Positions 1-13,266 of a stretch of 13,482 bases of DNA are shown piece by piece. The notes under the pieces are model-generated. The model ran no database searches, was not told where the DNA came from, and saw only the letters and a list, made by a program, of their open reading frames with translations. The translations under genes were made by a program, and so were the position numbers. Origin of the DNA: a virus (Duplodnaviria; Heunggongvirae; Uroviricota; Caudoviricetes). The stretch spans positions 1 through 13,482 of the IMG/VR virus record IMGVR_UViG_2541047885_000013. One strand, written 5' to 3'. Numbering within the stretch: the stretch's first letter is position 1; every line of letters begins with the position of its first letter.

Positions 1-1284
1 TTACTTCTTCGCCTCTGCAACCACTTTACTACCCACGCCGCGGTTATTGTATTCCCACATGCGGTTGTAGTTAGTGTCATTCAGATTGCGCTGTATTTCG
101 TCGTTATCATCTACGCTGCCGGTATTACCCGCAAACGGACGATTAGAGATCACCGCATCGGCCCACGGTTTAGCCGTGTTAAAACCTTCGTTGATGGCGC
201 TATCACGGATCACCACCTGACCGTTGGTATTGGCATCAACATCCAGCGAGCGGCCCAGTTGCGCCACACCATCACCGAAAGCATTGAAACGGCTGTTTAC
301 GGCGAGGAAACCGTAGTAAATGTTGGACAGCGTAGCCGGTGCAAACACATACGCTTCTTGCTGAGTACGTGAGTTCACCACGCGGAATTCGGTGTTATCG
401 AACACCACTGCGCCGCGACCAGAAACGATATCCACATCCCCTTCAATGTAGCTGTTGGTCACCAGCGTACGCGGCTGACGATTCGTTTCCAGACGGTTCT
501 GCACACCGCTGTTGGTGACAAAGAAGGTGTTCTGACGACCGAGAATGTTAACGTTGTTAATCTGTACCTGGTCACCATCAGTACGCAGTGCCACCGCCGG
601 ATGGTTACCTGCATCTACGCTATCGCCCAGCGTGTTTTCGATGGTCAGATTTTGCAGTTGCAGGCCATTGTTTTGTGACCAGAAGACCGCAGAGCAGAGA
701 ACACCGATACTGTCGCTGCGTTTGCTCTGGCAGCTATCGTACATATACCACGCTGGTTTACCTGGCATATATTTGCCGCGCGGGTTGACGTCGTGACGCC
801 AGTCGGCAGGGCTCATGCCACCATCAAGGGAAAGCCCAATCTTCACATCAATCGGTTTTTCACCTGTACCGTACAGAGTAATTCCACCCGGAGCGGCAGG
901 GACATATACCGTTCCCTGATACTCACCAGGCATCACGGCAATATACTGGCGCTTGTTGGTACGCTTGATAATTGCCGCATCTACCGCCGCCTGAATCGTG
1001 GTATGCGTTACACCTTGAGTGCCCGCCGGGCCGACAACAAAGTCAGGTTGCGCAGGCAGGGTAATCGGGGAAGGATTCCACGCTGCAGCACCTGGTGTCA
1101 GGGATGAAAAATAGTGTTGAGCATCGAAATTCTGCGCTTCTTTTGCCGACAGAATCGGGCGAGAAGAGGTACCAGGCGCGGTTTGATCAGAAGGACGTTG
1201 ATCGGGCGGGGTTGAGCTACAGGCGGTCAGCGTCACGCCAAAAGCCAATGCCAGCGCCAGACGGGAAACTGAAAATGTGTTCAC
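1..1284 (-). CDS. ybhC: YbhC, putative pectinesterase-family outer-membrane lipoprotein (host gene flanking attλ)
   Basis: Complete 427-aa ORF from the track; N-terminus has a lipoprotein signal with lipobox LTAC; sequence matches my recollection of E. coli YbhC, which lies next to attλ on the gal side. The window begins at its stop codon. Confidence 0.85.
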   Translation of the reverse strand: MNTFSVSRLALALAFGVTLTACSSTPPDQRPSDQTAPGTSSRPILSAKEAQNFDAQHYFSSLTPGAAAWNPSPITLPAQPDFVVGPAGTQGVTHTTIQAAVDAAIIKRTNKRQYIAVMPGEYQGTVYVPAAPGGITLYGTGEKPIDVKIGLSLDGGMSPADWRHDVNPRGKYMPGKPAWYMYDSCQSKRSDSIGVLCSAVFWSQNNGLQLQNLTIENTLGDSVDAGNHPAVALRTDGDQVQINNVNILGRQNTFFVTNSGVQNRLETNRQPRTLVTNSYIEGDVDIVSGRGAVVFDNTEFRVVNSRTQQEAYVFAPATLSNIYYGFLAVNSRFNAFGDGVAQLGRSLDVDANTNGQVVIRDSAINEGFNTAKPWADAVISNRPFAGNTGSVDDNDEIQRNLNDTNYNRMWEYNNRGVGSKVVAEAKK

Positions 1285-1330
1285 AGGTTGCTCCGGGCTA
1301 TGAAATAGAAAAATGAATCCGTTGAAGCCT

Positions 1331-1420
1331 GCTTTTTTATACTAAGTTGGCATTATAAAAAAGCATTTCTTATCAACTTGTTGCAACGAACAGGTCACTA
1401 TCAGTCAAAATAAAATCATT
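1331..1420. other. attL: attL of a lambda-type prophage: 15-bp core GCTTTTTTATACTAA (1331-1345) followed by the P' arm
   Basis: Core is read directly at 1331-1345. The following GTTGGCATTATAAAAAAGCATT..CTTATCAA..TTGTTGCAACGAACAGGTCACTATCAGTCAAAATAAAATCATTATTTG matches the remembered lambda attP P' arm (Int arm-type sites) with about 2 mismatches. Host sequence lies to the left and int immediately to the right. Confidence 0.85.
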
Positions 1421-2489
1421 ATTTGATTTCAATTTTGTCCCACTCCCTGCCTCTGTCATCACGATACTGTGATGCCATGGTGTCCGACTTATGCCCGAGA
1501 AGATGTTGAGCAAACTTATCGCTTATCTGCTTCTCATAGAGTCTTGCAGACAAACTGCGCAACTCGTGAAAGGTAGGCGGATCCCCTTCGAAGGAAAGAC
1601 CTGATGCTTTTCGTGCGCGCATAAAATACCTTGATACTGTGCCGGATGAAAGCGGTTCACGACGAGTAGATGCAATTATGGTTTCTCCGCCAAGAATCTC
1701 TTTGCATTTATCAAGTGTTTCCTTCATTGATATCCCGAGAGCATCAACATGCAATGTTGTAGGGATGGCAATTTTTACGCCTGTTTTGCTTTGCTCGACA
1801 TAAAGATATCCATCTACGATATCAGACCACTTCATTTCGCATAAATCCCCAACTCGCTGCCCGGTAACAACAGCCAGTTCCATTGCAAGTCTGAGCCAAC
1901 ATGGTGATGATTCTGCTGCTTGATAAATTTTCAGGTATTCGTCAGCCGTAAGTCTTGATCTCCTTACCTCTGATTTTGCTGCGCGAGTGGCAGCGACCGG
2001 GTTTGTTGTTATATGGCCTTCAGCCATTGCCTCTCGGAATGCATCGCTCAGTGTTGATCTGATTAACTTGGCTGACGCCGCCTTGCCCTCGTCTATGTAT
2101 CCATTGAGCATTGCCGCAATTTCTTTTGTGGTGATGTCTTCAAGTGGAGCATCAGGCAGACCCCTCCTTATTGCTTTAATTTTGCTCATGTAATTTATGA
2201 GTGTCTTCTGCTTGATTCCTCTGTTGACGAGGATTTTTTCGTAGCGATCAAGCCATGAATGTAACGTAACAGAATTATCACTGTTGATTCTCGCTGTCAG
2301 AGGCTTGTGTTTGTGTCCTGAAAATAACTCAATGTTGGCCTGTATAGCTTCAGTGATTGCTATCCTCCTGTCTCGGCCTAAACCAAACTCTTTACCCGTC
2401 CTTGGGTCCCTGTAGCAGTAATATCCATTGTTTCTTATATAAAGGTTAGGGGGTAAATCCCGGCGCTCATGACTTCGCCTTCTTCCCAT
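1419..2489 (-). CDS. int: Integrase (tyrosine recombinase), lambda Int type
   Basis: 356-aa translation MGRRRSHERRDLPPNLYIRNNGYYCYRDPRTGKEF...RDDRGREWDKIEIK matches lambda Int over its full length from memory; position next to attL and overlap with xis are as in lambda. Confidence 0.96.
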   Translation of the reverse strand: MGRRRSHERRDLPPNLYIRNNGYYCYRDPRTGKEFGLGRDRRIAITEAIQANIELFSGHKHKPLTARINSDNSVTLHSWLDRYEKILVNRGIKQKTLINYMSKIKAIRRGLPDAPLEDITTKEIAAMLNGYIDEGKAASAKLIRSTLSDAFREAMAEGHITTNPVAATRAAKSEVRRSRLTADEYLKIYQAAESSPCWLRLAMELAVVTGQRVGDLCEMKWSDIVDGYLYVEQSKTGVKIAIPTTLHVDALGISMKETLDKCKEILGGETIIASTRREPLSSGTVSRYFMRARKASGLSFEGDPPTFHELRSLSARLYEKQISDKFAQHLLGHKSDTMASQYRDDRGREWDKIEIK

Positions 2490-2685
2490 TTCTGATCCTC
2501 TTCAAAAGGCTACCTGTTACTGGTCGATTTAAGTCAACCTTTACCGCTGATTCGTGGAACAGATACTCTCTTCCATCCTTAACCGGAGGAGGGAATATCC
2601 TGCATTCGCGCACCCATCGACGAACTGTTTCAAGGCTTCTTGGGCGTCGCTGGCGTGCGTTCCACTCCTGAAGTGTCAAGTACAT
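2467..2685 (-). CDS. xis: Excisionase, lambda Xis type
   Basis: 72-aa translation MYLTLQEWNARQRRPRSLETVRRWVRECRIFPPPVKDGREYLFHESAVKVDL... matches lambda Xis; its 3' end overlaps the int start by 23 nt as in lambda. Confidence 0.95.
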   Translation of the reverse strand: MYLTLQEWNARQRRPRSLETVRRWVRECRIFPPPVKDGREYLFHESAVKVDLNRPVTGSLLKRIRNGKKAKS

Positions 2686-2790
2686 CGCAAAGTCTCCGCA
2701 ATTACACGCAAGAAAAGCCGCATTGATGCGGCAATGGTAGGTCTGGATATCTTGAGAAATGAACGGGCCTCATCGAGTGTGAGGCTGTGG

Positions 2791-3135
2791 TTAGTCCTTG
2801 CGTAACTCGCTAATTCTTCTGTAAGTCTCTGGTGCTTTGTTTCCGTGTATCTTCATTTCAGACTTCAACAGAGCAACGAGGGAATCCCATTCGGTGAGGA
2901 TGCCTTTGAATGCCGGAACGCGCTTTGCAACCTTGTCGAATGAATCTCTGATTTCTGGGATCTGCTCAACCAGTGCAACGCATCGTCGGAAATCGGCTGC
3001 GTCATGTGGAGCGCCGAAGTGATGACCATAGATATTCTTTTTCAGTCCACATGCGATTGAGGCAAGAGTTGCGCTACTGATGCCGACATCGCCAGTCGAT
3101 TGCCATTTCAAAACCTTCATAGCCAAATCTGACAT
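2791..3135 (-). CDS. Hypothetical protein, 114 aa (accessory gene next to xis)
   Basis: Track ORF 2791..3162; I place the start at the internal ATG (MSDLAMKVLKWQ...) because GGAG sits about 8 nt upstream and the longer N-terminal extension would run through a terminator hairpin. No family recognised. Confidence 0.55.
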   Translation of the reverse strand: MSDLAMKVLKWQSTGDVGISSATLASIACGLKKNIYGHHFGAPHDAADFRRCVALVEQIPEIRDSFDKVAKRVPAFKGILTEWDSLVALLKSEMKIHGNKAPETYRRISELRKD

Positions 3136-3146
3136 TTCTTGTCTCC

Positions 3147-3172
3147 AATAAAAAACCGCCATCAGGCGGTTT
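3147..3172 (-). terminator. Intrinsic terminator-like hairpin (AACCGCC-TGAT-GGCGGTT followed by TTTTTTATT on the minus strand)
   Basis: Read from the sequence: 7-bp GC-rich stem, 4-nt loop and a T-run on the minus strand. The stop codon of the 55-aa ORF lies in the loop, and the T-run runs into the RBS of the 114-aa gene. Confidence 0.5.
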
Positions 3173-3329
3173 GGTGTTCTTTCAGTTCTTCAATTCGAAT
3201 ATTGGTTACGTCTGCATGCGCTATCTGCGCCCATATCATCCAGTGGTTATAGCAGTCGTTGATGTCCTCTGCTTCGATAACCCTGTCGAATGACTCTCCA
3301 TTCCATTCACCTGTGACTCGGAAGTGCAT
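3162..3329 (-). CDS. Small hypothetical protein, 55 aa (MHFRVTGEWNGESFDRVIEAEDINDCYNHWMIWAQIAHADVTNIRIEELKEHQTA)
   Basis: Hand-translated ORF, below the track length cutoff; GGAG lies 8 nt upstream of the ATG (tatGGAGatgataaATG); bracketed by terminator-like hairpins upstream and downstream. In a different frame from the track's 61-aa ORF 3236..3421. Confidence 0.45.
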   Translation of the reverse strand: MHFRVTGEWNGESFDRVIEAEDINDCYNHWMIWAQIAHADVTNIRIEELKEHQTA

Positions 3330-3339
3330 TTATCATCTC

Positions 3340-3367
3340 CATAAAACAAAACTCGCCGTAGCGAGTT
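3340..3367 (-). terminator. Terminator-like hairpin (AACTCGC-tacg-GCGAGTT followed by TTTGTTTTAT on the minus strand)
   Basis: Inverted repeat read directly, about 65 nt downstream of the DUF551 gene stop, with a T-rich tail on the minus strand. Confidence 0.4.
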
Positions 3368-3429
3368 CAGATAAAAGAAATCCCCGCGAGTGCGAGGATT
3401 GTTATTCACCTTTGACGGCAAGTTGAAGG

Positions 3430-4350
3430 TTAGCCACGGTTAACCCCCTGCGGCGGTTCTGGCAGCGGCATCCAGTGGGTTACGTCATCCAAGATATTTC
3501 CTGATAAATATGTGAAAGCTCTATATTTTTTGTAATCAATTGGACTCATTACCCAGTTCCAATATGCTGCCACTATTTGACCTTGACTAAATGCCAGTAA
3601 CATTTTGGTGTCGTCCGGCATTCGCTCACTACAGCTTATCCAACCATCCGGAGTTACCGGAACTTGTGGAATGGCTGTCTGCTCTCGAACGTCATTAGGC
3701 GCTATAGGTTCTGCTGCCAACTGACTGGCATATTTGTTAATGGTAACGATAAGCTCTTGCTCAGCCTCATCCAGACAATCACCGATACCTCGCCTGTCAC
3801 CGTCAAAATCATCGAAATCGGCACGAATCCTGGCAACCTTCAGGATTGCGGACAACACCTCACTAGGAATTGCCGGATAGTTGGTTGACGTTTCCGCGAT
3901 TTCCCGAAAATTATTGGTTGACGAATTCTTGTTTTCCCGAAAGTTTCCGGACTGAAGCATGGCGGCGCGGCAGGCGTTCCATATTTCGGCAGCAATATCG
4001 CGCTCGCTATCGGTTAATTTGTACGTTGAAACATAGCCAGAGAGCATTTCTACGTTTTCCGGAGTTGCTTCTTCAGGCACTACCGGTGCTGGAGGGGCGG
4101 CGTAAATGCCCTCTATCACTAAATGTTTGCGCTCAAAATCATCTGGCTCTCGATGATATACGTAACTCCAATCACCAAGGTTATCATTGCGCCTGCAACG
4201 GAAACCTATCGGCTCTGCTTCCAGCGATGCCAGAGCAATTCGTGCCAGTTCTTCCGCTTCTTCTGCTGGCAGTACAACGTTGCTACCAGGTCCGTATGTT
4301 TCGCGCCACTGCCTGATTGTCAGCAGTCGCTCTTTGGTAATAGTGGTCAT
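3430..4350 (-). CDS. DUF551-like prophage protein, 306 aa
   Basis: Track ORF; the C-terminal segment ending ...VTHWMPLPEPP resembles the DUF551 domain common in enterobacterial prophage early regions; the N-terminal two thirds are unassigned. Confidence 0.65.
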   Translation of the reverse strand: MTTITKERLLTIRQWRETYGPGSNVVLPAEEAEELARIALASLEAEPIGFRCRRNDNLGDWSYVYHREPDDFERKHLVIEGIYAAPPAPVVPEEATPENVEMLSGYVSTYKLTDSERDIAAEIWNACRAAMLQSGNFRENKNSSTNNFREIAETSTNYPAIPSEVLSAILKVARIRADFDDFDGDRRGIGDCLDEAEQELIVTINKYASQLAAEPIAPNDVREQTAIPQVPVTPDGWISCSERMPDDTKMLLAFSQGQIVAAYWNWVMSPIDYKKYRAFTYLSGNILDDVTHWMPLPEPPQGVNRG

Positions 4351-4360
4351 GTGTTAGTCC

Positions 4361-4624
4361 TTATCCTGCTGTACTTTCAACTGATGAGGGGAATAAAATC
4401 TTTTCATCAAATCCGGCATTCATATCATGAACAGCAACACACCAATCCATTGACGAACGATTATCAAGAGCTTCCATGATTTCATCCATGCGGCGCAGGT
4501 CATACAGGTAAATGCTTTTATCGCCAATGGTGTAAAAACCAATTTTTTTCGGTGATGGGCAGCGATCAAGAACGTCCTGTAATTCGCTCAACCATGCTTG
4601 TTCTTTTTTTGTCAAAGTTGCCAT
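4361..4624 (-). CDS. Hypothetical protein, 87 aa
   Basis: Track ORF in the same orientation and tightly packed with its neighbours (2-nt gap to the next gene); no family recognised. Confidence 0.5.
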   Translation of the reverse strand: MATLTKKEQAWLSELQDVLDRCPSPKKIGFYTIGDKSIYLYDLRRMDEIMEALDNRSSMDWCVAVHDMNAGFDEKILFPSSVESTAG

Positions 4625-4625
4625 A

Positions 4626-5168
4626 TCACTCTCCTTTGATGCGAATGTCAGCGACGCGTAATGCGTGTTCTAGGTCAATCAGGTAAAGCCAACTGCCATT
4701 TTCTTTAGGTATCATGACTTGTCGCTCATCTGCATTTATCGGGTGTCCATATCGAAGGTCGTAGCGAGTCGGTAATTGAACTTCCCGCGCTTCCAGTTCA
4801 GCAATACGCTTGCACCCATCAGAGATAACTCCCTCGTAATACTCGCGCTGCTCGTTGAGTTTTGATTTTGCTGCTTCAAGCTCAACGCGCAGCTTCCCAA
4901 CCGTAAGCGCAATATCCTCGTTCTCCTGGTCGCGGCGTTTGATGTATTGCAGGTTTCTTTCCCGTTCATCCAACAATGCCAGCACGGTTTCTGGTCAGGT
5001 CAGAAATTTGAAGGCGTTGAGCGCATCAATATCCACACCGTAATCTTTAAGTTCCTGTTCACTTATCAGATCATCATCAACTGGCAACATTAACAGGCGT
5101 TCCATTGCCGGAATTGCACGTTCTGCCGCCTCACGCAGCGCCAGTGTGTCGATGTCGATGTTGCTCAT
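4626..5168 (-). pseudogene. ea22-like coiled-coil gene interrupted by an in-frame TGA (5' part 4995..5168, 3' part 4626..4985)
   Basis: Track ORFs 4995..5192 and 4626..4985 are in the same frame, separated by one TGA and three sense codons (...FKFLT*PET-V-LALLDERER...). The 5' part has a strong RBS (GAGGAGG) before MSNIDIDTL. The 3' part begins at a GTG with no recognisable RBS. The combined length of about 180 aa is close to lambda Ea22 (182 aa, from memory). Confidence 0.45.
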
Positions 5169-5398
5169 TGTGCCTCCTCGATTTCGTCCCATTCCACCCA
5201 GGCATTCTCTCCATCAGCATCGATTTCACCTTTGTGACCGCATTTGGAACAAACGGCCTCATCACCCGCCCACAAAGAATCTTTGGTTACCGACCATCCT
5301 GTTACCTTGGCTTTGCCGTGCTGGCACTTAGGGCAATCATCAAGCCATTCGACTTCGACCATTGAAGGACCAAATCCATGTTCAGTTCGGATGCTCAT
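5165..5398 (-). CDS. Small zinc-ribbon protein, about 77 aa (two CxxC pairs: CPKC and CSKC)
   Basis: Track ORF 5165..5431; I prefer the start at MSIRTEHG because its ATG overlaps the stop of the upstream gene as ATGA. Its own stop overlaps the start of the ea22-like gene in the same way. Confidence 0.55.
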   Translation of the reverse strand: MSIRTEHGFGPSMVEVEWLDDCPKCQHGKAKVTGWSVTKDSLWAGDEAVCSKCGHKGEIDADGENAWVEWDEIEEAQ

Positions 5399-5943
5399 GA
5401 CTGAACTCCTTTGCGAATCTGTTCCGCCCATTCTTCAAGGGATTTCTCCGCATATTCACCGGACAGGCCATCAATCGGATGCGGTTCATTAGCCAACTCT
5501 TCTTTCGCTGACAAAATCATGCGTGTAACGTCGAAAACTTCACGCAAAGACTTATTGATAAATCCGTGATTGAACGCAGCAGCAAGACGGCTTGCGGTGT
5601 AGTTAATCCCCTCGTTGCGTGCCTCCGCACGTATTTCAGCCAGGAAAGCGTCGGTGTCTGTGGTTTCGATATCGTTAATTTCAGGAAGAATCTCTTCCCA
5701 TGTAGCGATATCGCCATTCAAATGCCATCCGGCAATTCCACTGGAGTTATCCGCAACACTGCGAACAGCTTCAATAGTTTCATGCATTGCCGCATTCTCA
5801 GCCGCCAGAGCAGCATATTTATCTTCAAGTTCACCGAATTTACGCACCAGATATTCAGCGTTTGTTTCGTTAACCTTTAAATCATTTGGGATGCATTTAC
5901 CTTTCAGAAAACCATCCATCTCAATTAGTGACATTTGTTTCAT
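5395..5943 (-). CDS. Hypothetical protein, 182 aa
   Basis: Track ORF; GGAG lies about 9 nt upstream of the ATG; coupled to flanking genes by ATGA overlaps. No family confidently recognised. Confidence 0.6.
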
Positions 5944-6104
5944 TTTTTCCCACTCCGCAACATCGCATTCAGATATTTGTTTTGATTCACTGATGGAAAA
6001 GAATTTCTTTTAAGCAATTCTTCTCTCGATGGCATTGGCTTTACGCGTTGGCGAATAATCATTTCTGCCGGAAGAATGCCGGGGTTGTATGCAAGTCCTC
6101 TCAT
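5940..6104 (-). CDS. Small hypothetical protein, 54 aa ([54 protein letters not shown])
   Basis: Hand-translated, below the track cutoff; its start overlaps the stop of the 93-aa gene (ATGA) and its stop overlaps the start of the 182-aa gene (ATGA). It fills an otherwise non-coding 160-nt gap. Confidence 0.4.
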
Positions 6105-6382
6105 GATTTACTCTCCATGAACTGGTCAACAGCCATGCTAAGTGATACACCTAAAGTCTCGATATGCTGCTGAATATCCTGTAGCGTCTGCGCCTGAGAT
6201 AACAGGATTTCACGGTTGCATAACTCTTTGACCAGATGCTCAAACTTGCTGTAATAACCGATACGGCTTAGTGTTTCTTTCCCTGCATTCTCGCCTTCTT
6301 TGATAATTCCTCTTTCGCTAAGAATCAGATCGTGTTTGGTTCCGGTAATAACGTATTTGCCGAGGTCAATGTTTAGCTTCAT
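6101..6382 (-). CDS. Hypothetical protein, 93 aa
   Basis: Track ORF in operon orientation; no family recognised. Confidence 0.55.
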
Positions 6383-6398
6383 TGTTAATTACTCCATG

Positions 6399-6713
6399 TT
6401 AATTTATTCGTATGCCTGCTCTTCCTTCATCGAGTTTTTTTAGCTTGTATCGCATAGCTCTCACTGAATAAATTGAGCGGCAGGTTGCAATTGCTATTTC
6501 TTCTGCGGAGAACTTACCGAAAAGTGATACTTCGGCTCTTGTCCAGCGTCTTCCACGAAGTCGGCTAACAATGTCAGCGCCAATCCTTGTTGCTTTCGCC
6601 ATTACTGCTTTTTCAGTCCTTTCCAGTTTTTCAGCGATAACTTCAACTGGCATTGTCGCCGCTACTTCGCGCAAGAAATCGACTTCCCATTTCTCCCATG
6701 GAGTCTTTTTCAT
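6399..6713 (-). CDS. Hypothetical protein, 104 aa, with two tandem HTH-like motifs
   Basis: Track ORF. Two internally similar segments (W-x3-E-V..(E/V)EIA...R(T/S)...V.A...) match the general pattern of sigma-region-4/LuxR-type helix-turn-helix motifs; this is a pattern judgement, not a search hit. Confidence 0.55.
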   Translation of the reverse strand: MKKTPWEKWEVDFLREVAATMPVEVIAEKLERTEKAVMAKATRIGADIVSRLRGRRWTRAEVSLFGKFSAEEIAIATCRSIYSVRAMRYKLKKLDEGRAGIRIN

Positions 6714-6724
6714 AGGCGATACCG

Positions 6725-7207
6725 TTATTTGATAAGAAGTGAAGGTTTCCCAACCTTGAGTTGAGCGCCTGGGATATTTATTCCTGCTTTTAGTTGGTGC
6801 TTGATTGCCAGTTTGTCGGCTTTAATTGTCGTTTCGAACTCAACGTATTCAGGAGGAAGGGCGCTTGAGTCGATGATTTCTACAATTTCTGACGGTTTGC
6901 GGATTGTTACCTGGTGAATACCTGCTCGAATATTTTTCTTGCCAACCATTTCAAGCGATGACGCTATATATGATTTGATGCTGTCAATCTTATTTTGAAT
7001 TACTGCGGCTCGCTCATTCAGTGACTTTGCCTCTTCCTTGAGGCGTTCAGCATAACCAGATTCATTTTTAATGACGGAAAGAAGTTGCTCTATTTTATCG
7101 GTAAATTCTCCTTCCATGCCTTCTATTGTGTCAGCAATCATCTCTGGTTCTAAATCTGAATCCATCAATTTTGCGTATTCATTGGCAATTTCATATAGTT
7201 TGCTCAC
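6725..7207 (-). CDS. Coiled-coil protein resembling the siphovirus Gp157 family, often found beside phage recombinases
   Basis: Track ORF 6725..7213 begins at a TTG; I prefer the GTG start two codons in (GGAGG about 6 nt upstream). The family assignment is from recollection and the genomic context directly downstream of recT. Confidence 0.4.
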   Translation of the reverse strand: MSKLYEIANEYAKLMDSDLEPEMIADTIEGMEGEFTDKIEQLLSVIKNESGYAERLKEEAKSLNERAAVIQNKIDSIKSYIASSLEMVGKKNIRAGIHQVTIRKPSEIVEIIDSSALPPEYVEFETTIKADKLAIKHQLKAGINIPGAQLKVGKPSLLIK

Positions 7208-8102
7208 TGGCAACCTCCAGTTTCGCTTTGCATTCTGCGTAAATGGCTTGTACGTTCTGCTGCAATTTCATTCCAGATGTCAGGCGATATGCTTCTGCAA
7301 AATATCGCTTCAAATCATCCATGTTTTCAGCCTGAGCCATTTCATCACAAAGAAGTTGTGCTTTATCCGTTATTTCCTGCTGGCGTTTCCGTTCATCTTC
7401 GCGGATATCTTCCTCTGATTTGTGCGGCATAACTGGTTCAGTCCACACACCTTCTTCTTCGTTTAGTACGTGAATAGCACTATCAAGACGTGATGCCTTA
7501 GGCCAATACTTGCTTGCACGCTTTACGACCGTCTTTCGCGCCATCTCATTCCAGTGATTTACCCATGGTCCTTTATCGCTGAATGCCGCCTTGCTTGTTT
7601 TCCTTACAGCCTCAATTTCAGCCAGACTCATCTCTTCCGTTAGATAATCACCTGCTGGCGTCTTAACTGTGCAGTAAACGCCAACGATATCACCACGATC
7701 ACCGAAGGCGTTGTATTTATGGGTTGGTGCTTTATCAAGCCCGTTTGACTCATAGGTATCGTTAGCATGAACAAGTTTTGCCTGACCCCATGAGATAACA
7801 CCAGACTCCATTGCAATATGGAGCAATCCCATATAACTGATATCAAGGCACACCATGCCGTCGCGAGGAACCAGATAAGCCAGTTTGCTGGCCGGGTTTA
7901 AGGTGATGCCGATCGCCGCAACATTGATGATGGCGTTCTGTGCGCTGGTTGGATTTGCCAGTGCCGTTTTAGCCAGGTAATCATTTTTCTGGAAATACTG
8001 AATTGCAAACTGGCTTTCCTTAGCCCATGTCACCGTCTGTTCAGTCAATGCTCCGCAGAATAACTGCTCTTGCTGTTTAACGAATTCAACGATATTGCTC
8101 AT
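7191..8102 (-). CDS. recT: RecT-family single-strand annealing recombinase
   Basis: 303-aa translation contains ...GPWVNHWNEMARKTVVKRASKYWP..., closely paralleling Rac RecT ...GPWVTHWEEMAKKTAIRRLFKYLP..., plus the RecT-like segment NVAAIGITLNP. Confidence 0.8.
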   Translation of the reverse strand: MSNIVEFVKQQEQLFCGALTEQTVTWAKESQFAIQYFQKNDYLAKTALANPTSAQNAIINVAAIGITLNPASKLAYLVPRDGMVCLDISYMGLLHIAMESGVISWGQAKLVHANDTYESNGLDKAPTHKYNAFGDRGDIVGVYCTVKTPAGDYLTEEMSLAEIEAVRKTSKAAFSDKGPWVNHWNEMARKTVVKRASKYWPKASRLDSAIHVLNEEEGVWTEPVMPHKSEEDIREDERKRQQEITDKAQLLCDEMAQAENMDDLKRYFAEAYRLTSGMKLQQNVQAIYAECKAKLEVASEQTI

Positions 8103-8410
8103 GCAGCTTCTCCATAAATATGTCTGCGTTTGAATATTGCGAAGGCATATTCAGCCTTAACTCTTTCGGTTATTGCATCCCAGAACCATTCAGCGGCTTT
8201 TTCCTGATAGTTACAGTCATCATCTTCCAGCCAGTCGATAGCGTCCTTAGTGTGTTCATCTGGTTTATATGAGCGAAGCATTTCGCTTATTGGGTCGCAA
8301 CGTTTGCAGAGGCGATCAACTTCACTGTTGATTCGTTCGTAATCTTCATCAGTAAAACTTGCGATTATTTGCGATATTTCACGCTTATCATTCAGAGTCA
8401 GAATCATCAT
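8099..8410 (-). CDS. Hypothetical protein, 103 aa
   Basis: Track ORF; AGGAG lies 4 nt upstream of the ATG; its stop overlaps the recT start (ATGA). Confidence 0.55.
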   Translation of the reverse strand: MMILTLNDKREISQIIASFTDEDYERINSEVDRLCKRCDPISEMLRSYKPDEHTKDAIDWLEDDDCNYQEKAAEWFWDAITERVKAEYAFAIFKRRHIYGEAA

Positions 8411-8495
8411 CTTTCTCCTGTTCTTTGTGCTGATTGAGCATTTTGTTCATCTGACGAATGAATTCTTCGTCTGACCAGTTATCTGTAAAACTCAT
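8388..8495 (-). CDS. Small acidic hypothetical protein, 35 aa (MSFTDNWSDEEFIRQMNKMLNQHKEQEKDDDSDSE)
   Basis: Hand-translated; its start overlaps the stop of the cIII-like gene (ATGA); its 3' end overlaps the start of the 103-aa gene in another frame. Weak RBS. Confidence 0.3.
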   Translation of the reverse strand: MSFTDNWSDEEFIRQMNKMLNQHKEQEKDDDSDSE

Positions 8496-8662
8496 GGACG
8501 GCCTTGTTGTTTCAAAATATCCCAAAGCTTTTCGAGCAAACTTTTCATTCTTGGTTGTTTAAAGTCTGCTCCGGTTAAAATATTTTTTCGTGAATGCTGT
8601 ACCGATAAAATCGGGTTGAAAGGGCGAACCGATGCCGCCCCTGCAATAGCGAACTGTTGCAT
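8492..8662 (-). CDS. cIII: cIII-like protein, 56 aa (putative FtsH inhibitor)
   Basis: Internal start of track ORF 8492..8767, with AGGAG 5 nt upstream of the ATG. The translation MQQFAIAG...KSLLEKLWDILKQQGRP resembles lambda CIII (MQYAIAGW...ESLLERITRKLRDGWKRLIDILNQPGVP, from memory), and it lies in the expected position in the pL operon. Confidence 0.5.
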   Translation of the reverse strand: MQQFAIAGAASVRPFNPILSVQHSRKNILTGADFKQPRMKSLLEKLWDILKQQGRP

Positions 8663-8866
8663 AGGATGCTCCTTCTGTTTGATTGCATAACGAAAACGCC
8701 TCAAGTGAAGCGTTATTGGTATGCATATAAAAAAGCCCTCACATAGGAGGGCAAAGAAGATTTCCAATAATCAGAACAAGTCGGCTCCTGTTTAGTTACG
8801 AGCGACATTGCTCCGTGTATTCACTCGTTGGAATGAATACACAGAGCAGTGTTTATTCTGTTTTTT

Positions 8867-8896
8867 ATGGCAAAAATAAAAGCTGCCATCAGGCAG
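8867..8896 (-). terminator. Intrinsic terminator-like hairpin (GCTGCC-TGAT-GGCAGC followed by TTTTATTTTT on the minus strand), in a tL1-like position
   Basis: Read from the sequence; it lies in the pL operon downstream of N and the small acidic ORF and upstream of cIII, a position analogous to lambda tL1. Confidence 0.5.
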
Positions 8897-8969
8897 CCTT
8901 GTTGTTCTGTTTACCAAGTTCTCTGGAAATCATTGCCGTCGTTCGTATTGTCCACACCATTGATTTTTA

Positions 8970-9056
8970 TCAATAGTCGTAGTCATACGGATAGTCCTGG
9001 TATTGTTCCATCACATCCTGCGGATGCTCTTCGAACTCTTCAAATTCTTCTTCCAT
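8970..9056 (-). CDS. Very acidic 28-aa peptide (MEEEFEEFEEHPQDVMEQYQDYPYDYDY)
   Basis: Hand-translated; strong RBS (GAGGTGA) 4 nt upstream of the ATG; first ORF downstream of N. The track's plus-strand ORF 8849..9088 is antisense to it. Confidence 0.4.
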   Translation of the reverse strand: MEEEFEEFEEHPQDVMEQYQDYPYDYDY

Positions 9057-9064
9057 ATATCACC

Positions 9065-9391
9065 TCAAATAAGTGGTTTGCTGCCTAATTTCATTTTCTG
9101 GCGACCAACACAAGTCACACCCATTTCACTGCGTGGCTTGCTGTACCATGTGCGCTGATTCTTGCGCTCAATACGTTGCAGGTTGCTTTCAATCTGTTCG
9201 TGGTATTCAGCCAGCACTGTAAGGTCTATCGGATTCAGTGCGCTTTCTACTCGTGATTTCGGTTTGCGATTCAGCGAGAGAATTGGGCGGTTAACTGGTT
9301 TTGCGCTTACCCCAACCAACAGGGGATTTGCTGCTTTCCATTGAGCCTGTTTCTCTGCGCGACGTTCGCGGCGGCGTGTTTGTGCATCCAT
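9065..9391 (-). CDS. N: Antitermination protein N (lambda type)
   Basis: 108-aa translation MDAQTRRRERRAEKQAQWKAANPLLVGVSAKPVNRPILSLNRKPKSRVESALNPIDLTVLAEYH... matches lambda N (arginine-rich boxB-binding motif at the N-terminus); the extreme C-terminus differs. Confidence 0.93.
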   Translation of the reverse strand: MDAQTRRRERRAEKQAQWKAANPLLVGVSAKPVNRPILSLNRKPKSRVESALNPIDLTVLAEYHEQIESNLQRIERKNQRTWYSKPRSEMGVTCVGRQKMKLGSKPLI

Positions 9392-9589
9392 CTGGATTCT
9401 CCTGTCAGTTAGCTTTGGTGATTGGATGGCCGGCGCTGAACCCCGGCTTACTGGTTAGAGCGCCCGCACTACCAGTGACGCTGTCTTGAGGCGCAGATTG
9501 GTTACTGCTTGCCATGAGCGCTGTTTATACATTGGTCGAGCATCAGCCTGCTCATTCATCCAATCCCAAAGCCTTCTGCTTTGAAAGCT

Positions 9590-9622
9590 GCCCTTCTTCA
9601 GGGCTTAATTTTTAAGAGCATC
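9590..9622 (-). promoter_or_regulatory. nutL: nutL (boxA CGCTCTTAA-like, boxB GCCCTGAAGAAGGGC on the minus strand)
   Basis: The reverse complement of 9590-9622 reads GATGCTCTTAAAAATTAAGCCCTGAAGAAGGGC, matching lambda nutL boxA and boxB, in the leader between pL and N. Confidence 0.85.
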
Positions 9623-9652
9623 ACCTTCATGGTGGTTAGTGCGTCCTGCTGA

Positions 9653-9688
9653 TGGCTAAATAGTACGATTTGTACTTTATCGAGTCAA
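9653..9688 (-). promoter_or_regulatory. pL promoter (-35 TTGACT, 17-bp spacer, -10 TACTAT, predicted +1 near 9653) with an overlapping operator AAAGTACAAATCGTACTATT
   Basis: Minus-strand sequence TTGACT-N17-TACTAT-TTAGCC-ATCAGCAGGACGCAC has the same architecture as lambda pL and its transcript start (ATCAGCAGG), but the operator sequence is different from lambda's. Confidence 0.7.
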
Positions 9689-9750
9689 TACAAAATGTTC
9701 TAAATATGATTAGTTTTTTATAACGCTTTGTATTTAATGGGTTTATGTTT

Positions 9751-9783
9751 TGGAAAAAGAAAACCCGACGCTAAGGTCGGGTT
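9751..9783 (-). terminator. Intrinsic terminator immediately downstream of cI (AACCCGAC-loop-GTCGGGTT followed by TTCTTTTTCC on the minus strand)
   Basis: 8-bp GC-rich stem and T-run read directly, about 30 nt after the cI stop. Confidence 0.6.
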
Positions 9784-9813
9784 ATTGTTGTGTGTTTTAG
9801 AGTTGTGAGGCTG

Positions 9814-10473
9814 TTAACTAAATGTCTCTTCAGGCCACTGGCTGGCGATAACTTTCCCTACTACGGAACAGCTATCATTGCATGGAATCATTGGATATTG
9901 CGGGTTTAGTGGCTGTAGGAACACCTGACCGCTATCCCTGATCAGTTTCTTGAAGGTAAACTCGTCACCACCAAGTCTGGCTATGCAGAAATCACCTGGC
10001 TCAACAGCCTGCTCAGGGTCAACGAGAATTAACATCCCGTCAGGAAAGCTTGGCTTGGATCCTGTTGGCGCGGTCATGGAATTACCTTCAACTTCAAGCC
10101 AGAACGCACAATCACTGGCTTTTTTGGTTGTGCTGACCCATCTCTCCGCATCACCTTTGGTAAAGGTTCTAAGCTCAGGCGAGAACATCCCGGCCTGAAC
10201 ATGAGAAAAAACAGGGTACTCATATTGTTTTTTAACGGGGGCAGATGAGTATTCGCCAACAGGTGAAAATGTACCGTCGTGGTTGAATGAGACGTTATCA
10301 ATACCAAGGTATTTAAACACCACACCAATCTCGTCAAGAGATGGATGACGAGATCCGCGCAACCAGTGACCAATTCCACCCTGCGTCATACCAAGCTCTT
10401 CAGCTAACTTCTCTTGAGTTATGCCGAGCTCTTTCATTCTGGATCTAGCCAGTTCATACCATTTCATTTTCAT
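9814..10473 (-). CDS. cI: cI-type prophage repressor: lambda-like C-terminal S24 autopeptidase/dimerisation domain joined to a non-lambda N-terminal HTH domain
   Basis: Track ORF 9814..10515. From ...[39 protein letters not shown]... to the end it matches the lambda CI C-terminal domain almost residue for residue (from memory). The N-terminal about 90 aa ([40 protein letters not shown]...) is an XRE-type HTH unlike lambda's. Start chosen at MKMKW (10473); 10467 or 10515 are possible. Confidence 0.85.
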
Positions 10474-10529
10474 ACCCTTATTATTACGCTCTGTACTAAA
10501 ACCATCCATGCACAAGATGTATTTTTTGT

Positions 10530-10558
10530 TTGCATTCTAAAAGTACATATCGTATTAT
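10530..10558 (+). promoter_or_regulatory. pR promoter (-35 TTGCAT, 17-bp spacer, -10 TATTAT) with an overlapping operator AAAGTACATATCGTATTATT
   Basis: Read directly in the cI-cro intergenic region. The 20-bp operator-like sequence over the -10 is a near copy (2 mismatches) of the one overlapping the pL -10; a third related site (TAGTACAGAGCGTAATAAT, minus strand, about 10479-10498) sits just upstream of the cI start. Confidence 0.55.
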
Positions 10559-10584
10559 TGTTTCATGGTTACTATGGAGGGCAT

Positions 10585-10800
10585 ATGAGCAACCTACGAA
10601 AATATCGAGAGTCACTGAATATCTCTCAAACAACACTTGCTAAGGCAGTTGGATGCACACAGGGAGCTATCGGACATTGGGAATCTGGTCGTCGCTTCCC
10701 AGACCTTAAAACATGCCGTGCTCTTGTTGAGTGCCTAAACAAGTTAGGCGCAAAAGTCAGTCTTGATGACGTGTTCCCGCCGGAACACAAAGCCGCTTAA
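10585..10800 (+). CDS. cro: Cro-like repressor, 71 aa, XRE-type HTH
   Basis: Internal ATG of track ORF 10414..10800, with GGAGGG 4 nt upstream. Its HTH (ISQTTLAKAVGCTQGAIGHWESG) is similar to the cI N-terminal HTH. It is divergent from cI and followed by nutR. Confidence 0.8.
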   Translation: MSNLRKYRESLNISQTTLAKAVGCTQGAIGHWESGRRFPDLKTCRALVECLNKLGAKVSLDDVFPPEHKAA

Positions 10801-10809
10801 GACATTCTA

Positions 10810-10840
10810 GCTCTTACACATCACAGCCCTGAAAAAGGGC
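10810..10840 (+). promoter_or_regulatory. nutR: nutR (boxA GCTCTTACACA, boxB GCCCTGAAAAAGGGC)
   Basis: Sequence AGCTCTTACACATCACAGCCCTGAAAAAGGGC matches lambda nutR boxA and boxB, between cro and cII. Confidence 0.85.
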
Positions 10841-10916
10841 ATTACCAGAAACAAATCTCTATGGTTTTGCGTTTCTTTGCGAAGCCAACTCTATCTAATC
10901 ATTAAGGAAATTATCT

Positions 10917-11198
10917 ATGGGTACTATTGCAACTAAAAGCAAGAAAGCGGCTCGCATCGAGTCGGCCTTGCTGAACAAACTGGCACTGATGGGGCAGAAG
11001 ACATTCGCTCGAGCAATGGGGGTTCCTGAATATCAGGTAAGCCGATGGAAGAATGGTTTCTTCTCGCAGGTAAGCATGATGCTTGCTGTTCTGGAATACG
11101 GAATCGAAGACGATGAAATGGCTGAATTGACTAAGCGGCTTGCCGATTACCTGACAAAAGAAAAAGCCCCGAAGAACGGCGAATTCTTCGAGGCATGA
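10917..11198 (+). CDS. cII: cII-like transcriptional activator, 93 aa
   Basis: Translation ...[33 protein letters not shown]...[18 protein letters not shown]... parallels lambda CII ([33 protein letters not shown]...LLAVLEWGVVDDDMARL); position after cro and nutR. Confidence 0.75.
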
Positions 11199-11232
11199 TG
11201 TAGAAAGACTGGATCAATCCACAGGAGTAATT

Positions 11233-11379
11233 ATGACAAAACAACTCAGTCCTTACCAGGACAAAATTCACAAACACATACTACGTGATCGCTTCCTGTC
11301 CAGCTTCAAGCAGCCTGGTCGATTCCGGGCTGAGTTGGAAAAAGTGAAGCTGATGCAGAAGGAGAAAGGTCATGAGTAA
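11233..11379 (+). CDS. Small hypothetical protein, 48 aa, between cII and O
   Basis: Hand-translated ([48 protein letters not shown]); AGGAG lies 5 nt upstream of the ATG; its 3' end overlaps the O start by 8 nt. Confidence 0.35.
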
Positions 11380-12232
11380 TCTTGCAACCGTAACACATTT
11401 AAGGCCTTCACAACGGCCTGTGGAGCGTCGTGTGGCAGAAGTTGAAGATGGTTATACCCGTCTTGCAAATGCCCTGTATGAAGAGCTTATCGGCGCAGAT
11501 TTAACGAAAAATCAGAGCAAGGTTGCCCACGCCATATGCCGTAAAACATACGGCTACGGTAAAAAGATGGATCGCATCTCTGATAGTCAGTTAGCTCAAA
11601 TTACCAGGCTGCCAAGACAGAAGGTAAACAAGGCCAAGAATGAGCTTATCGCGATGAAGGTTATCCTTCGCGAAGGCCAGCAAATCGGGCCTAACAAGAA
11701 CATCGAGGAATGGCAAATCGAAGGGTGTCACTACTCTGGTGATAATGTCACTGCATTGGTGACAAAAAGTGTCACCAAAACGGTGACAGCGCTGTCACCA
11801 AAACAGGGACACACAAAAGAAACTATTACAAAAGAAAAAAGAAATAATAAAAACACTATGTCCGAAAGTGTTCGGACGGAGTGTGAAAAATCACCTGACC
11901 GTCACGAAGAAACCGACAAGGCATTCGAGGAAATATTCTGGTGTGCAGGCATGCGGAAAGCCGGGAAGAAAAACGCAGCTTCGGCATTCAGAACACAGTT
12001 CAGGGAATGGCGTAAAACTACCAGGGGTACGGCAAGCGAGTTTGCCACGATGCTGGCAGAAGACATCGCATGCAGGAATGGTAAGCAGTTCGGATTCGAC
12101 AGGTTGTTACCATCGAGCTACCTGAACGGTCAACGCTGGAACGACGAGAAGCCAGAAACTATTCAACCACAATCCAAACCATCATCCGCAATCACCGTAT
12201 CGAAAACTGGCTACGTGTTTTTCGACAGGTGA
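11372..12232 (+). CDS. O: Replication initiator, lambda O-like N-terminal iteron-binding domain
   Basis: The N-terminal region ([56 protein letters not shown]...GPNKNIEEW) parallels lambda O (DGYARLSNMLLEAYSGADLTKRQFKVLLAILRKTYGWNKPMDRITDSQLSEITKLP...GPNKNISEW); iterons lie inside the gene. The C-terminal half is not recognisably lambda-like. Confidence 0.8.
11726..11860. repeat. Putative replication origin inside the O gene: GTCAC/GTGAC iterons followed by an AT-rich tract
   Basis: Read directly: TGTCAC (11726), TGTCAC (11745), GGTGACA (11758), TGTCACC (11770), GGTGACA (11782), TGTCACC (11793), then an A/T-rich stretch (about 11815-11860). This organisation is analogous to the lambda origin. 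Confidence 0.6.
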
Positions 12233-12235
12233 ACC

Positions 12236-12343
12236 ATGAAATCAAAAATCAAATCGCTACTGGTCGCTGGTTATAACCACGGTTGGTTAAGTATTTCGTT
12301 TGTCGATTTCTGGTTTAAAAATCTCAATCTGAGGGAATCATGA
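12236..12343 (+). CDS. Small hydrophobic peptide, 35 aa (MKSKIKSLLVAGYNHGWLSISFVDFWFKNLNLRES)
   Basis: Hand-translated; AGGTGA lies just upstream of the ATG; its stop overlaps the start of the primase-like gene (ATGA). Confidence 0.35.
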   Translation: MKSKIKSLLVAGYNHGWLSISFVDFWFKNLNLRES

Positions 12344-13266
12344 CGCCAAGTGAACTCAGCGACCTGCTTTGGGCGCAGGTTGACAGGGTGGCTCCGCACC
12401 TGTTGCCAAACGGCAAGAAAGAGGGGCATGAGTGGGTTGCCGGTAACGTCAACGGTGACAAGGGAAACAGCCTTAAGGTCAACCTTAGCGGCAAGAAAAA
12501 ATGGGCTGATTTCGCTGAGGGAGACGGCGGTGACATGCTTGATTTGTGGATGGCGTGTCGTGGAATTAACCTGCATCAGGCTATGCAGGAAGCGAAAGCC
12601 TTTCTCGGAATCAAGGATGACGATCACCATTTCGATGCCAAACGTGAGAAGAAATTCTCCAGACCTGATCGCAAGAAAATCGCCCGCTATGTTACCAGAA
12701 CAGAATCCCATCTTGAGTACCTGCAATCGCGTGGCATATCGCCAGAAGTCGTAAAGCGCTACGAGGTTGTAAGCGGCAAGGTGTGGAATGGAGAGCGGGA
12801 ACTGGATGCTCTGGTGATTCCGTACAAACGCGATGGTGAGTTGTTGCAGGTCAAGCGAATCAGCACTGAGCGCCCGGACGGGAAGAAAGTCATTATGGCA
12901 GAAGGTGATTGCGAACCTTGTCTGTTCGGATGGCAGGCTCTGGACGCTGGCGTGAGGGCGGTTGTACTTTGCGAAGGCGAAATTGATTGTATGAGCTATG
13001 CGCAATACGGCATCTCGGCGTTATCCGTGCCGTTTGGTGGAGGGAAAGGCGCTAAGCAACAGTGGATTGAGTTTGAGTACCACAACCTCGACAGGTTTGA
13101 GGAAATATTCATCTCGATGGACGTTGATGATGTTGGTCGTGAAGCCGCAAGGGAAATCGCAAGCCGACTCGGTGAACATCGTTGCCGTCTTGTTACTCTG
13201 CCGTACAAAGACATTAACGAATGCCTGATGAATGGTGTTACCGAGGATGAAATCTGGCAGTACTGA
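12340..13266 (+). CDS. Toprim-domain primase-like replication protein, probably truncated at its 3' end by an IS insertion
   Basis: 308-aa track ORF with Toprim-like motifs (VVLCEGEIDCMSYAQYG and ISMDVDDVGREA). Its stop codon TGA (13264-13266) is the first three bases of the IS terminal repeat. Confidence 0.65.
   Translation: MTPSELSDLLWAQVDRVAPHLLPNGKKEGHEWVAGNVNGDKGNSLKVNLSGKKKWADFAEGDGGDMLDLWMACRGINLHQAMQEAKAFLGIKDDDHHFDAKREKKFSRPDRKKIARYVTRTESHLEYLQSRGISPEVVKRYEVVSGKVWNGERELDALVIPYKRDGELLQVKRISTERPDGKKVIMAEGDCEPCLFGWQALDAGVRAVVLCEGEIDCMSYAQYGISALSVPFGGGKGAKQQWIEFEYHNLDRFEEIFISMDVDDVGREAAREIASRLGEHRCRLVTLPYKDINECLMNGVTEDEIWQY

Follow-up and report, generated by a model that had tools for sequence, protein, structure and literature searches.

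Immediately downstream of recT, in 13,482 nucleotides of tailed-phage DNA (Duplodnaviria; Heunggongvirae; Uroviricota; Caudoviricetes) that form positions 1 to 13,482 of the IMG/VR record IMGVR_UViG_2541047885_000013 and are referred to here, over their whole length, as the window, lie three small minus-strand genes, which encode a Sipho_Gp157 protein of 160 amino acids (aa), a 104-aa protein made up of two helix-turn-helix (HTH) repeats and a 93-aa DUF5405 protein (Table 1). These genes are real but ordinary, being catalogued cassettes that are shuffled separately, and they do not constitute a new three-gene system. The explanation of the whole that we favour, with somewhat more confidence than doubt, is that Gp157 would provide end protection, that the 104-aa protein is an Abc1-like protein of the kind known from phage P22, and that DUF5405 is an exchangeable accessory.

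A preliminary description of this DNA, made from its sequence alone, had taken the three genes for a fixed module of which no member could be assigned. The three consecutive open reading frames (ORFs) after recT, on the minus strand (6725-7213, 6399-6713 and 6101-6382), are genuine, with the start of the first moved to 7207; neither the fixed module nor the lack of assignment held. Each protein has a family, namely PF05565 and PHROG 253 for Gp157, PHROG 323, together with P22 Abc1 and Mu gp9, for the 104-aa protein, and PF17399 and PHROG 154 for the 93-aa protein, and phage HK140, which carries the same module, had already been listed as having a SAP-4 (RecT-type) recombinase and a MuGam-type anti-RecBCD function, with no nuclease and no single-stranded DNA-binding protein (SSB) (PMC12315714). 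The 104-aa gene follows Gp157 in all 74 close viral contigs with enough flanking sequence, whereas DUF5405 is present in only 34 of them and absent from the 40 others, which keep recT-Gp157-104aa, and it also travels with other recombination modules and in other types of phage. The more general idea of that description, that genes beside a recombinase counter host nucleases or defences, is a reasonable one.

The tandem HTH duplication that had been noticed in the 104-aa protein is confirmed by comparison of the family profiles of its N- and C-terminal halves (hhalign probability 91.6%, P=8e-7), and relatives of the protein contain between 3 and 10 copies of the repeat unit. An exhaustive profile search with the family recovered 3291 proteins at E<=0.001, many of them with 4-10 units, and in the multi-repeat relatives the unit coincides with Pfam matches to Myb_DNA-binding (2e-41), Sigma70_r4_2 and GcrA; because these matches fall at the coordinates of the unit, the unit, of about 47 residues, is predicted to be a Myb/SANT-like three-helix HTH. 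The link to Myb is an indirect one, as the 104-aa protein itself matched only HTH_12 when compared with Pfam, at 20.2 bits and below the cut-off of 21.4. Proteins of 400-900 aa were also seen to contain the same Myb-like unit, repeated 7-10 times in tandem, and in one of them a ResIII/Helicase_C helicase domain accompanies the repeats; these long repeat proteins form a large family which has no functional name in the libraries searched.

PHROG 323 is common to the 104-aa protein (3.5e-20), P22 Abc1 (1.3e-23) and Mu gp9 (5.2e-29), all of which are basic (pI 10.1, 10.3 and 9.3, respectively). Alignment of the 104-aa family with the P22 Abc1 family by hhalign gave a probability of 94.9% (E=4e-8) over residues 9-94 and 6-94, with both repeats in register, and the hidden Markov model (HMM) of each family matches members of the other. 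By these profiles, P22 Abc1 and Mu gp9 are divergent homologues of the 104-aa protein, and in the annotation of phage Gally a protein 99% identical to it already bears the name “Anti-RecBCD protein 1, similar to P22 Abc1”. Several points weigh against reading too much into this kinship. Pairwise BLASTP detected no similarity between the 104-aa protein and P22 Abc1, and part of the signal that joins them is generic helix-turn-helix similarity, the unit being very common, as its 3291 matches show. We know of no mechanism established for P22 Abc1 since 1987. There is also the precedent of the HK620 “abc1” gene, annotated by position, which proved to encode an SSB (PMC5928155); this case shows that position alone is insufficient, and the 104-aa protein has profile-level homology in addition.

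The strongest evidence comes from the genomic neighbourhoods of these proteins. The slot after recT-Gp157 is filled by a gene of the 104-aa type in Serratia prophages (HMM 1e-22) and by genuine P22-type Abc1 in those of Klebsiella and Enterobacter (HMM 1e-30 to 1e-32), while a gam-?-YqaJ exonuclease module in Salmonella is closed by a relative with three repeats and a DUF3799-exonuclease module in Enterobacter by one with two. In phage Mu, gp9 (99 aa, two HTH repeats) occupies 1483-1782, immediately upstream of gam at 1802-2326 (here and below, coordinates outside the window are those of the stretch fetched). Among 80 fetched Mu-like loci, 51 have an ORF that matches the 104-aa family HMM and ends just before gam. 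They include nearly all the loci whose Gam is at least 90% identical; at 73-80% Gam identity such an ORF was found in two of the seven full-length loci, and none was found before gam in the fetched loci at 64% or less. Abc1-type proteins thus accompany recombination and anti-nuclease genes of at least five compositions.

P22 Abc1 aids recombination without being essential for it (PMC12315714), and by analogy the 104-aa protein would most likely bind nucleic acid and assist the recombination and anti-nuclease function of the phage, as Abc1 does genetically in P22. The preliminary description had suggested a small DNA-binding regulator, which is possible and is not better supported than an Abc1-like accessory role in recombination. 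In its full form, that of a transcription regulator of host, prophage or satellite promoters with no direct role in recombination, we regard this alternative as rather unlikely, though it deserves to be taken seriously. The protein is basic and its two repeats resemble Myb and sigma-70 region 4, PHROG 323 is labelled “transcriptional regulator, D5-like”, and expression of P22 Abc1 both leads to cell death by way of the P4 satellite prophage, read by the authors as interference with P4 transcription, and renders wild E. coli sensitive to several phages (bioRxiv 10.1101/2023.04.06.535777; PMC12373910). A regulator with no part in recombination fits poorly, on the other hand, with the way in which Abc1-type genes persistently close recombination modules of five compositions and adjoin Mu gam, and with the P22 genetics that tie abc1 to recombination (PMC12315714). 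Operator-like repeats were not found either, although no search aimed at them was made.

The assignment of the first gene as Gp157-like was also correct. The protein matches PF05565 along the full profile (E=2.4e-37; 128.9 bits against a cut-off of 28.6; positions 1-162 of 162) and phrog_253 at E=5e-54, and the label of PHROG 253, “Mu Gam-like end protection”, is also that carried by HK140 gp40 in its own record. Its start is almost certainly GTG 7207 in place of TTG 7213, because GGAGG stands 6 nt before the GTG, the TTG directly abutting that GGAGG, and because HK140 gp40 and nearly all full-length homologues among the matches listed are 160 aa long. The AlphaFold2 model (mean pLDDT 81.8, falling to 57-77 in the C-terminal part) shows a helix of 67 residues (21-87) and, after it, a beta-rich domain at the C-terminus.

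A tblastn search recovered the Gp157 family from 599 phage records, chiefly of Streptococcus, Vibrio, Staphylococcus, Listeria and enterobacteria; a range that spans Firmicutes and Proteobacteria fits a mechanism at DNA ends and not one directed at a single host enzyme. The gene lies directly after RecT in all seven enterobacterial prophage loci compared (Gp157 64-74% identical) and directly beside Sak4 in four of six diverse phages (Klebsiella VLCpiS13b, Listeria LP-101, Staphylococcus phiNM2 and Streptococcus Sfi21); Pantoea PdC23 has one HNH gene between Gp157 and Erf, and in Vibrio D53 Gp157 adjoins an exonuclease gene, and no recombinase is annotated next to it. In phages of Firmicutes, Mu gam-like, sipho_gp157, DUF2483 and DUF1351 genes have been described as alternating upstream of erf or sak4, from which an analogous function was inferred (PMC8093625). 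Free-standing HNH endonuclease genes were observed exactly between the recombinase gene and Gp157 both in phage Louie (3305-3772) and in PdC23 (2040-2504), which are unrelated; the junction may be a recurrent homing site.

That Gp157 works like Mu Gam is a guess, and the best-supported functional one, because the two types of gene are interchangeable in position, because Gp157 is independent of the type of recombinase and because its hosts span organisms with RecBCD and with AddAB. Gp157 would then be the stand-in of this module for Gam or Abc2, probably dimeric and composed of a coiled coil plus a beta domain, acting at double-stranded DNA ends and not by binding a particular host enzyme, and it would shield the ends of phage DNA from RecBCD and other exonucleases so that RecT could use them. 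Mu Gam itself is a Ku-like protein which binds double-stranded DNA ends.

Homology between Gp157 and Mu Gam is unproven and weakly supported. When the Gp157 alignment was broadened by six diverse members, hhalign aligned it with Mu Gam at P=0.002, with a probability of only 14%, and this alignment is collinear over the full length (7-160 against 23-166) with matching GKK, R-P-S and K-x-A-I motifs. Other results weigh against it: PF07352 (Phage_Mu_Gam) did not match Gp157 at E<=0.1; Mu Gam belongs to phrog_491 and not to phrog_253; with the narrow alignment the hhalign probability was 0.6-1.1%; and Foldseek against BFVD returned only other Gp157 proteins and no named Gam. The literature yielded no experimental or functional work on any Gp157 protein. 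GamL and Gp157 are also found together, both in a prophage of Klebsiella aerogenes and in HK639 (PMC12315714), an observation that argues against simple redundancy of Gp157 with a RecBCD inhibitor. The K. aerogenes prophage (2337-3983) holds GamL, RecT and Gp157 in one module, followed by genuine P22-type Abc1 and DUF5405, and the presence of a dedicated RecBCD inhibitor alongside Gp157 suggests different jobs for the two.

These same observations lend something to a second reading, improbable to our minds though worth stating, by which Gp157 is a direct accessory of annealing proteins, for instance a mediator that loads or organises the recombinase on single-stranded DNA or at replication forks. 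Gp157 adjoins the recombinase gene in most contexts examined, the exceptions being PdC23, with its single intervening HNH gene, and D53; it coexists with the separate inhibitor GamL; and its relation to Mu Gam or Ku was not demonstrable in the present comparisons. A single specific protein contact is unlikely, however, for a protein that is paired with recombinases of three superfamilies lacking structural kinship (RecT, Erf and Sak4), and the alternation of Gp157 with genuine Mu gam-like genes in one slot (PMC8093625) again speaks for end protection.

The third protein of the group belongs to the DUF5405 family (PF17399 at 25.5 bits against a cut-off of 21.6; phrog_154 at E=5e-31) and is 98% identical to HK446 gp29 and 95% identical to Sf6 gp24. 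It is optional, as the contig counts above and its absence from Gally show, and its settings are varied. DUF5405 follows abc2 in Sf6, ES18, SPN9CC and HK446, and RecT-Gp157-Abc1 in the K. aerogenes prophage; distant members are found just before replication gene A of P2-like phages, overlapping its start, and in the early region of the N4-like Klebsiella phage Pylas, and in a T4-like Morganella phage the gene comes after the gp47/gp46 homologues and before the clamp genes. The present search recovered the family from Enterobacterales phages only. Such a distribution is that of a freely exchanged early accessory gene, which would not be part of the recombination machinery.

Two specific ideas about this protein were tried and rejected. 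That it replaces Abc2 is contradicted by the lack of any BLASTP alignment between them and of any phrog_656 match, and by its co-occurrence with abc2 in four phages; that it mimics the N-terminal lobe of Rad50/SbcC was likewise tested and discarded. Sequence searches of the PDB with all three proteins, and a profile search with DUF5405, gave no match, the PADLOC defence models did not match, nothing meaningful matched in NCBIfam, and no papers on DUF5405 were found in the literature. For our overall explanation this is a weak point, as no specific function of DUF5405 gained positive support.

The label of PHROG 154, “replication initiation protein”, would make DUF5405 a replication initiation or accessory protein. 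We consider this very improbable. The overlap with the start of gene A in P2-like phages and the position between gp46/47 homologues and clamp genes in the Morganella phage would agree with such a role; no similarity of the protein to a characterised replication initiator or a PDB entry was found, and the label is without support. In phage Wphi, orf81 and orf83 (1978-2280 and 2501-2776) both carry it, with sequences that look unrelated by eye, and the PHROG-derived label of these P2-like genes seems to owe its spread to their location close to genes B and A.

Given its patchy, Enterobacterales-limited distribution and a locus that has been described as an anti-defence hotspot, DUF5405 probably acts on a host factor. 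A more specific form of this idea, in which it is an anti-defence or host-takeover factor of the Abc2/Oad2 hotspot that counters a system guarding RecBCD or DNA ends, is in our view conceivable rather than likely. In HK446, Sf6, ES18 and the window the gene stands between abc2 or an Abc1-like gene and DUF2737, after which comes an EaE/Oad2-like gene, at a locus which a July 2026 preprint on OLD describes as a hotspot of anti-defence genes, and its patchy presence across unrelated types of phage would suit such a factor. Direct evidence is lacking, as is any match in PADLOC or elsewhere; the protein is not strongly acidic (net charge about -2), and the screen of an HK446 library for OLD inhibitors in that preprint recovered gp27 only, DUF5405 not being reported.

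A still bolder proposal joins two claims, and taken jointly we would call it a long shot. By the first, the Abc1-like proteins with two Myb-type HTH repeats (P22 Abc1, Mu gp9 and the 104-aa protein) are a widespread and so far unrecognised component of recombination modules, which partners Abc2, Mu Gam, Gp157 or lambda Gam; by the second, which is separate, DUF5405 is an inhibitor of a defence that senses RecBCD inhibition. The Abc1-like proteins might recruit the end-protection or anti-RecBCD partner to the ends or recombination intermediates of phage DNA; alternatively, they might couple evasion of RecBCD to the transcription of resident prophages or satellites.

The window is a lambdoid prophage of the HK140/mEpX1 type, integrated at the lambda attachment site, and its part from 5900 to 8450 was found in full in 265 of 5426 complete E. 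coli genomes. Its left end (1-1284) holds what we take, by eye, to be the host gene ybhC, with a lipoprotein-like product of 427 aa, followed by what are presumably, again by eye, a lambda integrase-like ORF (1419-2489) and a 72-aa ORF in the position of an excisionase (2467-2685). From the N-like gene to about 2.8 kb the minus strand is an unbroken run of closely packed early-left genes, in which the order around the three genes is 103aa-recT-Gp157-Abc1-like-DUF5405-DUF2737-EaE-like. The start of the Gp157 gene overlaps the end of recT, 11 nt separate it from the 104-aa gene and 16 nt separate that gene from DUF5405, and DUF5405 and DUF2737 share an ATGA overlap. Terminator-like hairpins are confined to 8900-8695, between N and the recombination genes; on the coding strand from 8410 to 5395 no consensus terminator was found and there was a single promoter-like match, a 9/12 site at 7134-7105, promoter-like sites being no more frequent in the scanned region than in shuffled sequence. 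The three genes and their neighbours form one transcription unit, the early-left operon of the minus strand, and the region would correspond to the promoter-distal end of the recombination module in an N-dependent operon of an HK140-like prophage, occupied by three independent cassettes. Plus-strand antisense ORFs at 6300-6443, 6571-6732 and 7071-7418 have no support, and the window contains no Chi site, a count that is uninformative at such a length. No kil homologue was evident beside the cIII-like ORF of the window, whereas kil is present in Louie, Sf6 and P22.

Of the flanking genes, recT has no adjoining exonuclease or SSB gene. The acidic 103-aa protein, a conserved neighbour of recT on its promoter side, has no Pfam match, PF28165 included; in Serratia, Enterobacter and Cronobacter prophages the same slot before recT-Gp157 holds a gene of 100-102 aa, and in the K. 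aerogenes prophage it holds GamL (PF28165). BLASTP found no similarity between the 103-aa protein and that GamL, so that the idea of a divergent GamL gained no support, and the protein could be a RecBCD inhibitor not yet recognised or a partner of RecT. Beyond the three genes, the DUF2737 protein shares phrog_1117 with P22 orf56 and marks a module boundary that is common to the window, P22, Sf6 and ES18. The next product, EaE-like, shares 45% identity with HK446 gp27 over 143 residues, and the first 40 or so residues of the two are near-identical. HK446 gp27 has been named Oad2 and described as a direct inhibitor of the abortive tRNase OLD of phage P2, and a 54%-identical homologue from HK75 was reported without OLD inhibition, which leaves the specificity uncertain (July 2026 preprint). 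On this similarity, the EaE-like protein may be an anti-defence protein of the Oad2 family.

Table 1. Features of the window around the recombination module, with positions in the window.
Feature	Position	Strand	Basis or remark
EaE-like protein, 182 aa	5395-5943	-	phrog_614
DUF2737 protein, 54 aa, = P22 orf56	5940-6104	-	PF10930 E=3.4e-32; synteny
DUF5405 protein, 93 aa (P2 Orf83 / Sf6 gp24 family)	6101-6382	-	optional accessory cassette
Abc1-like basic protein, 104 aa, pI 10.1	6399-6713	-	phrog_323 E=3.5e-20
HTH repeat 2 of the 104-aa protein, residues 55-98	6420-6551	-	half-versus-half and Abc1-family alignments
HTH repeat 1 of the 104-aa protein, residues 4-47	6573-6704	-	half-versus-half alignment; aligns to Mu gp9 residues 10-55
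Sipho_Gp157 protein, 160 aa, GTG start	6725-7207	-	PF05565, phrog_253; putative Gam-analogous end-protection factor or recombinase companion
RecT-family single-strand annealing protein, 303 aa	7191-8102	-	PF03837 E=2.7e-32; phrog_148 E=1.7e-92
Acidic protein, 103 aa	8099-8410	-	phrog_3486 E=1.7e-59
cIII-like ORF, 56 aa	8492-8662	-	cIII in the HK140 annotation; between the N gene and the recombination genes
N-like antiterminator	9065-9391
cI-type repressor	9814-10515
Replication genes	past 11 kb	+

As a discovery the locus is of small value, since it is a near-copy of sequenced phages in which every gene falls in a named family; the linkage of Gp157 to recombinases is published and the Abc1 label is already used in at least one phage record. 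Two points may not have been noted before, the first being that Abc1, Mu gp9 and the 104-aa family form one group associated with recombination modules generally, and the second that the slot after recT-Gp157 accepts genuine Abc1 and the 104-aa type interchangeably; between them they give a concrete handle on P22 Abc1, an old puzzle. Annotation would gain from three corrections, namely the start of Gp157 at GTG 7207, the removal of the unsupported “replication initiation protein” from DUF5405 and the replacement of a “D5-like” label that hides kinship with Abc1. RecT, Gp157 and an Abc1-like protein also make up a nuclease-free module, from which one could learn how annealing proteins operate when no exonuclease is dedicated to them, and which might serve recombineering.

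Among known systems, the closest is HK140, whose module (gp42-gp41 RecT-gp40-gp39-gp38-gp37) has the gene order of the window and essentially no difference from it, the window being a prophage copy. Modules of the HK140 type are also present in vB_EcoP-611R6 and Louie, of which only Louie was noted to carry the HNH insert between recT and Gp157, and over 5900-8450 the DNA identity to these three phages is 97-98%. Compared with the window, mEpX1, Kapi1 and Gally lack a stretch of about 280 bp, and the annotation of Gally is without DUF5405 and DUF2737.

The preliminary description had compared the position of the three genes with that of lambda gam and kil, which lie instead on the side of bet that faces the promoter; the proper comparison is with erf-abc1-abc2-orf56 of P22, which has the same place in the early-left operon. 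The 104-aa protein is homologous to Abc1 at the level of profiles and shares with it the two repeats and the basic charge, and DUF2737 corresponds to orf56. They differ in that the recombinase of P22 is Erf and that of the window RecT, in that the window has no Abc2, and in that Gp157 is placed between its recombinase and its Abc1-like gene. The gp9-gam pair of Mu, which is conserved across close Mu relatives, resembles the Gp157/104-aa pair in placing a PHROG 323 HTH-repeat protein beside a protein of some 170 aa that starts with a coiled coil and has a beta-rich domain at its C-terminus; the order is reversed, with gp9 before gam in Mu and Gp157 before the 104-aa gene in the window, and the larger proteins belong to different families, PF07352/PHROG 491 for Mu Gam and PF05565/PHROG 253 for Gp157.

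The founding member of Sipho_Gp157, orf157 of the dairy streptococcal phage Sfi21, is of the same family and length as the protein of the window and lies directly upstream of Sak4. It is about 29% identical, comes from a phage of a Gram-positive host and has Sak4 in place of RecT as its partner; the “phage resistance” label attached to the family stems from a nearby non-coding origin element and not from the protein. P2 Orf83 and Sf6 gp24, lastly, share the Pfam and PHROG families and the size of the DUF5405 protein, at 34-95% identity, but the P2-like genes are found in the replication operon, before gene A, whereas those of the window, Sf6, ES18 and HK446 follow the recombination module.

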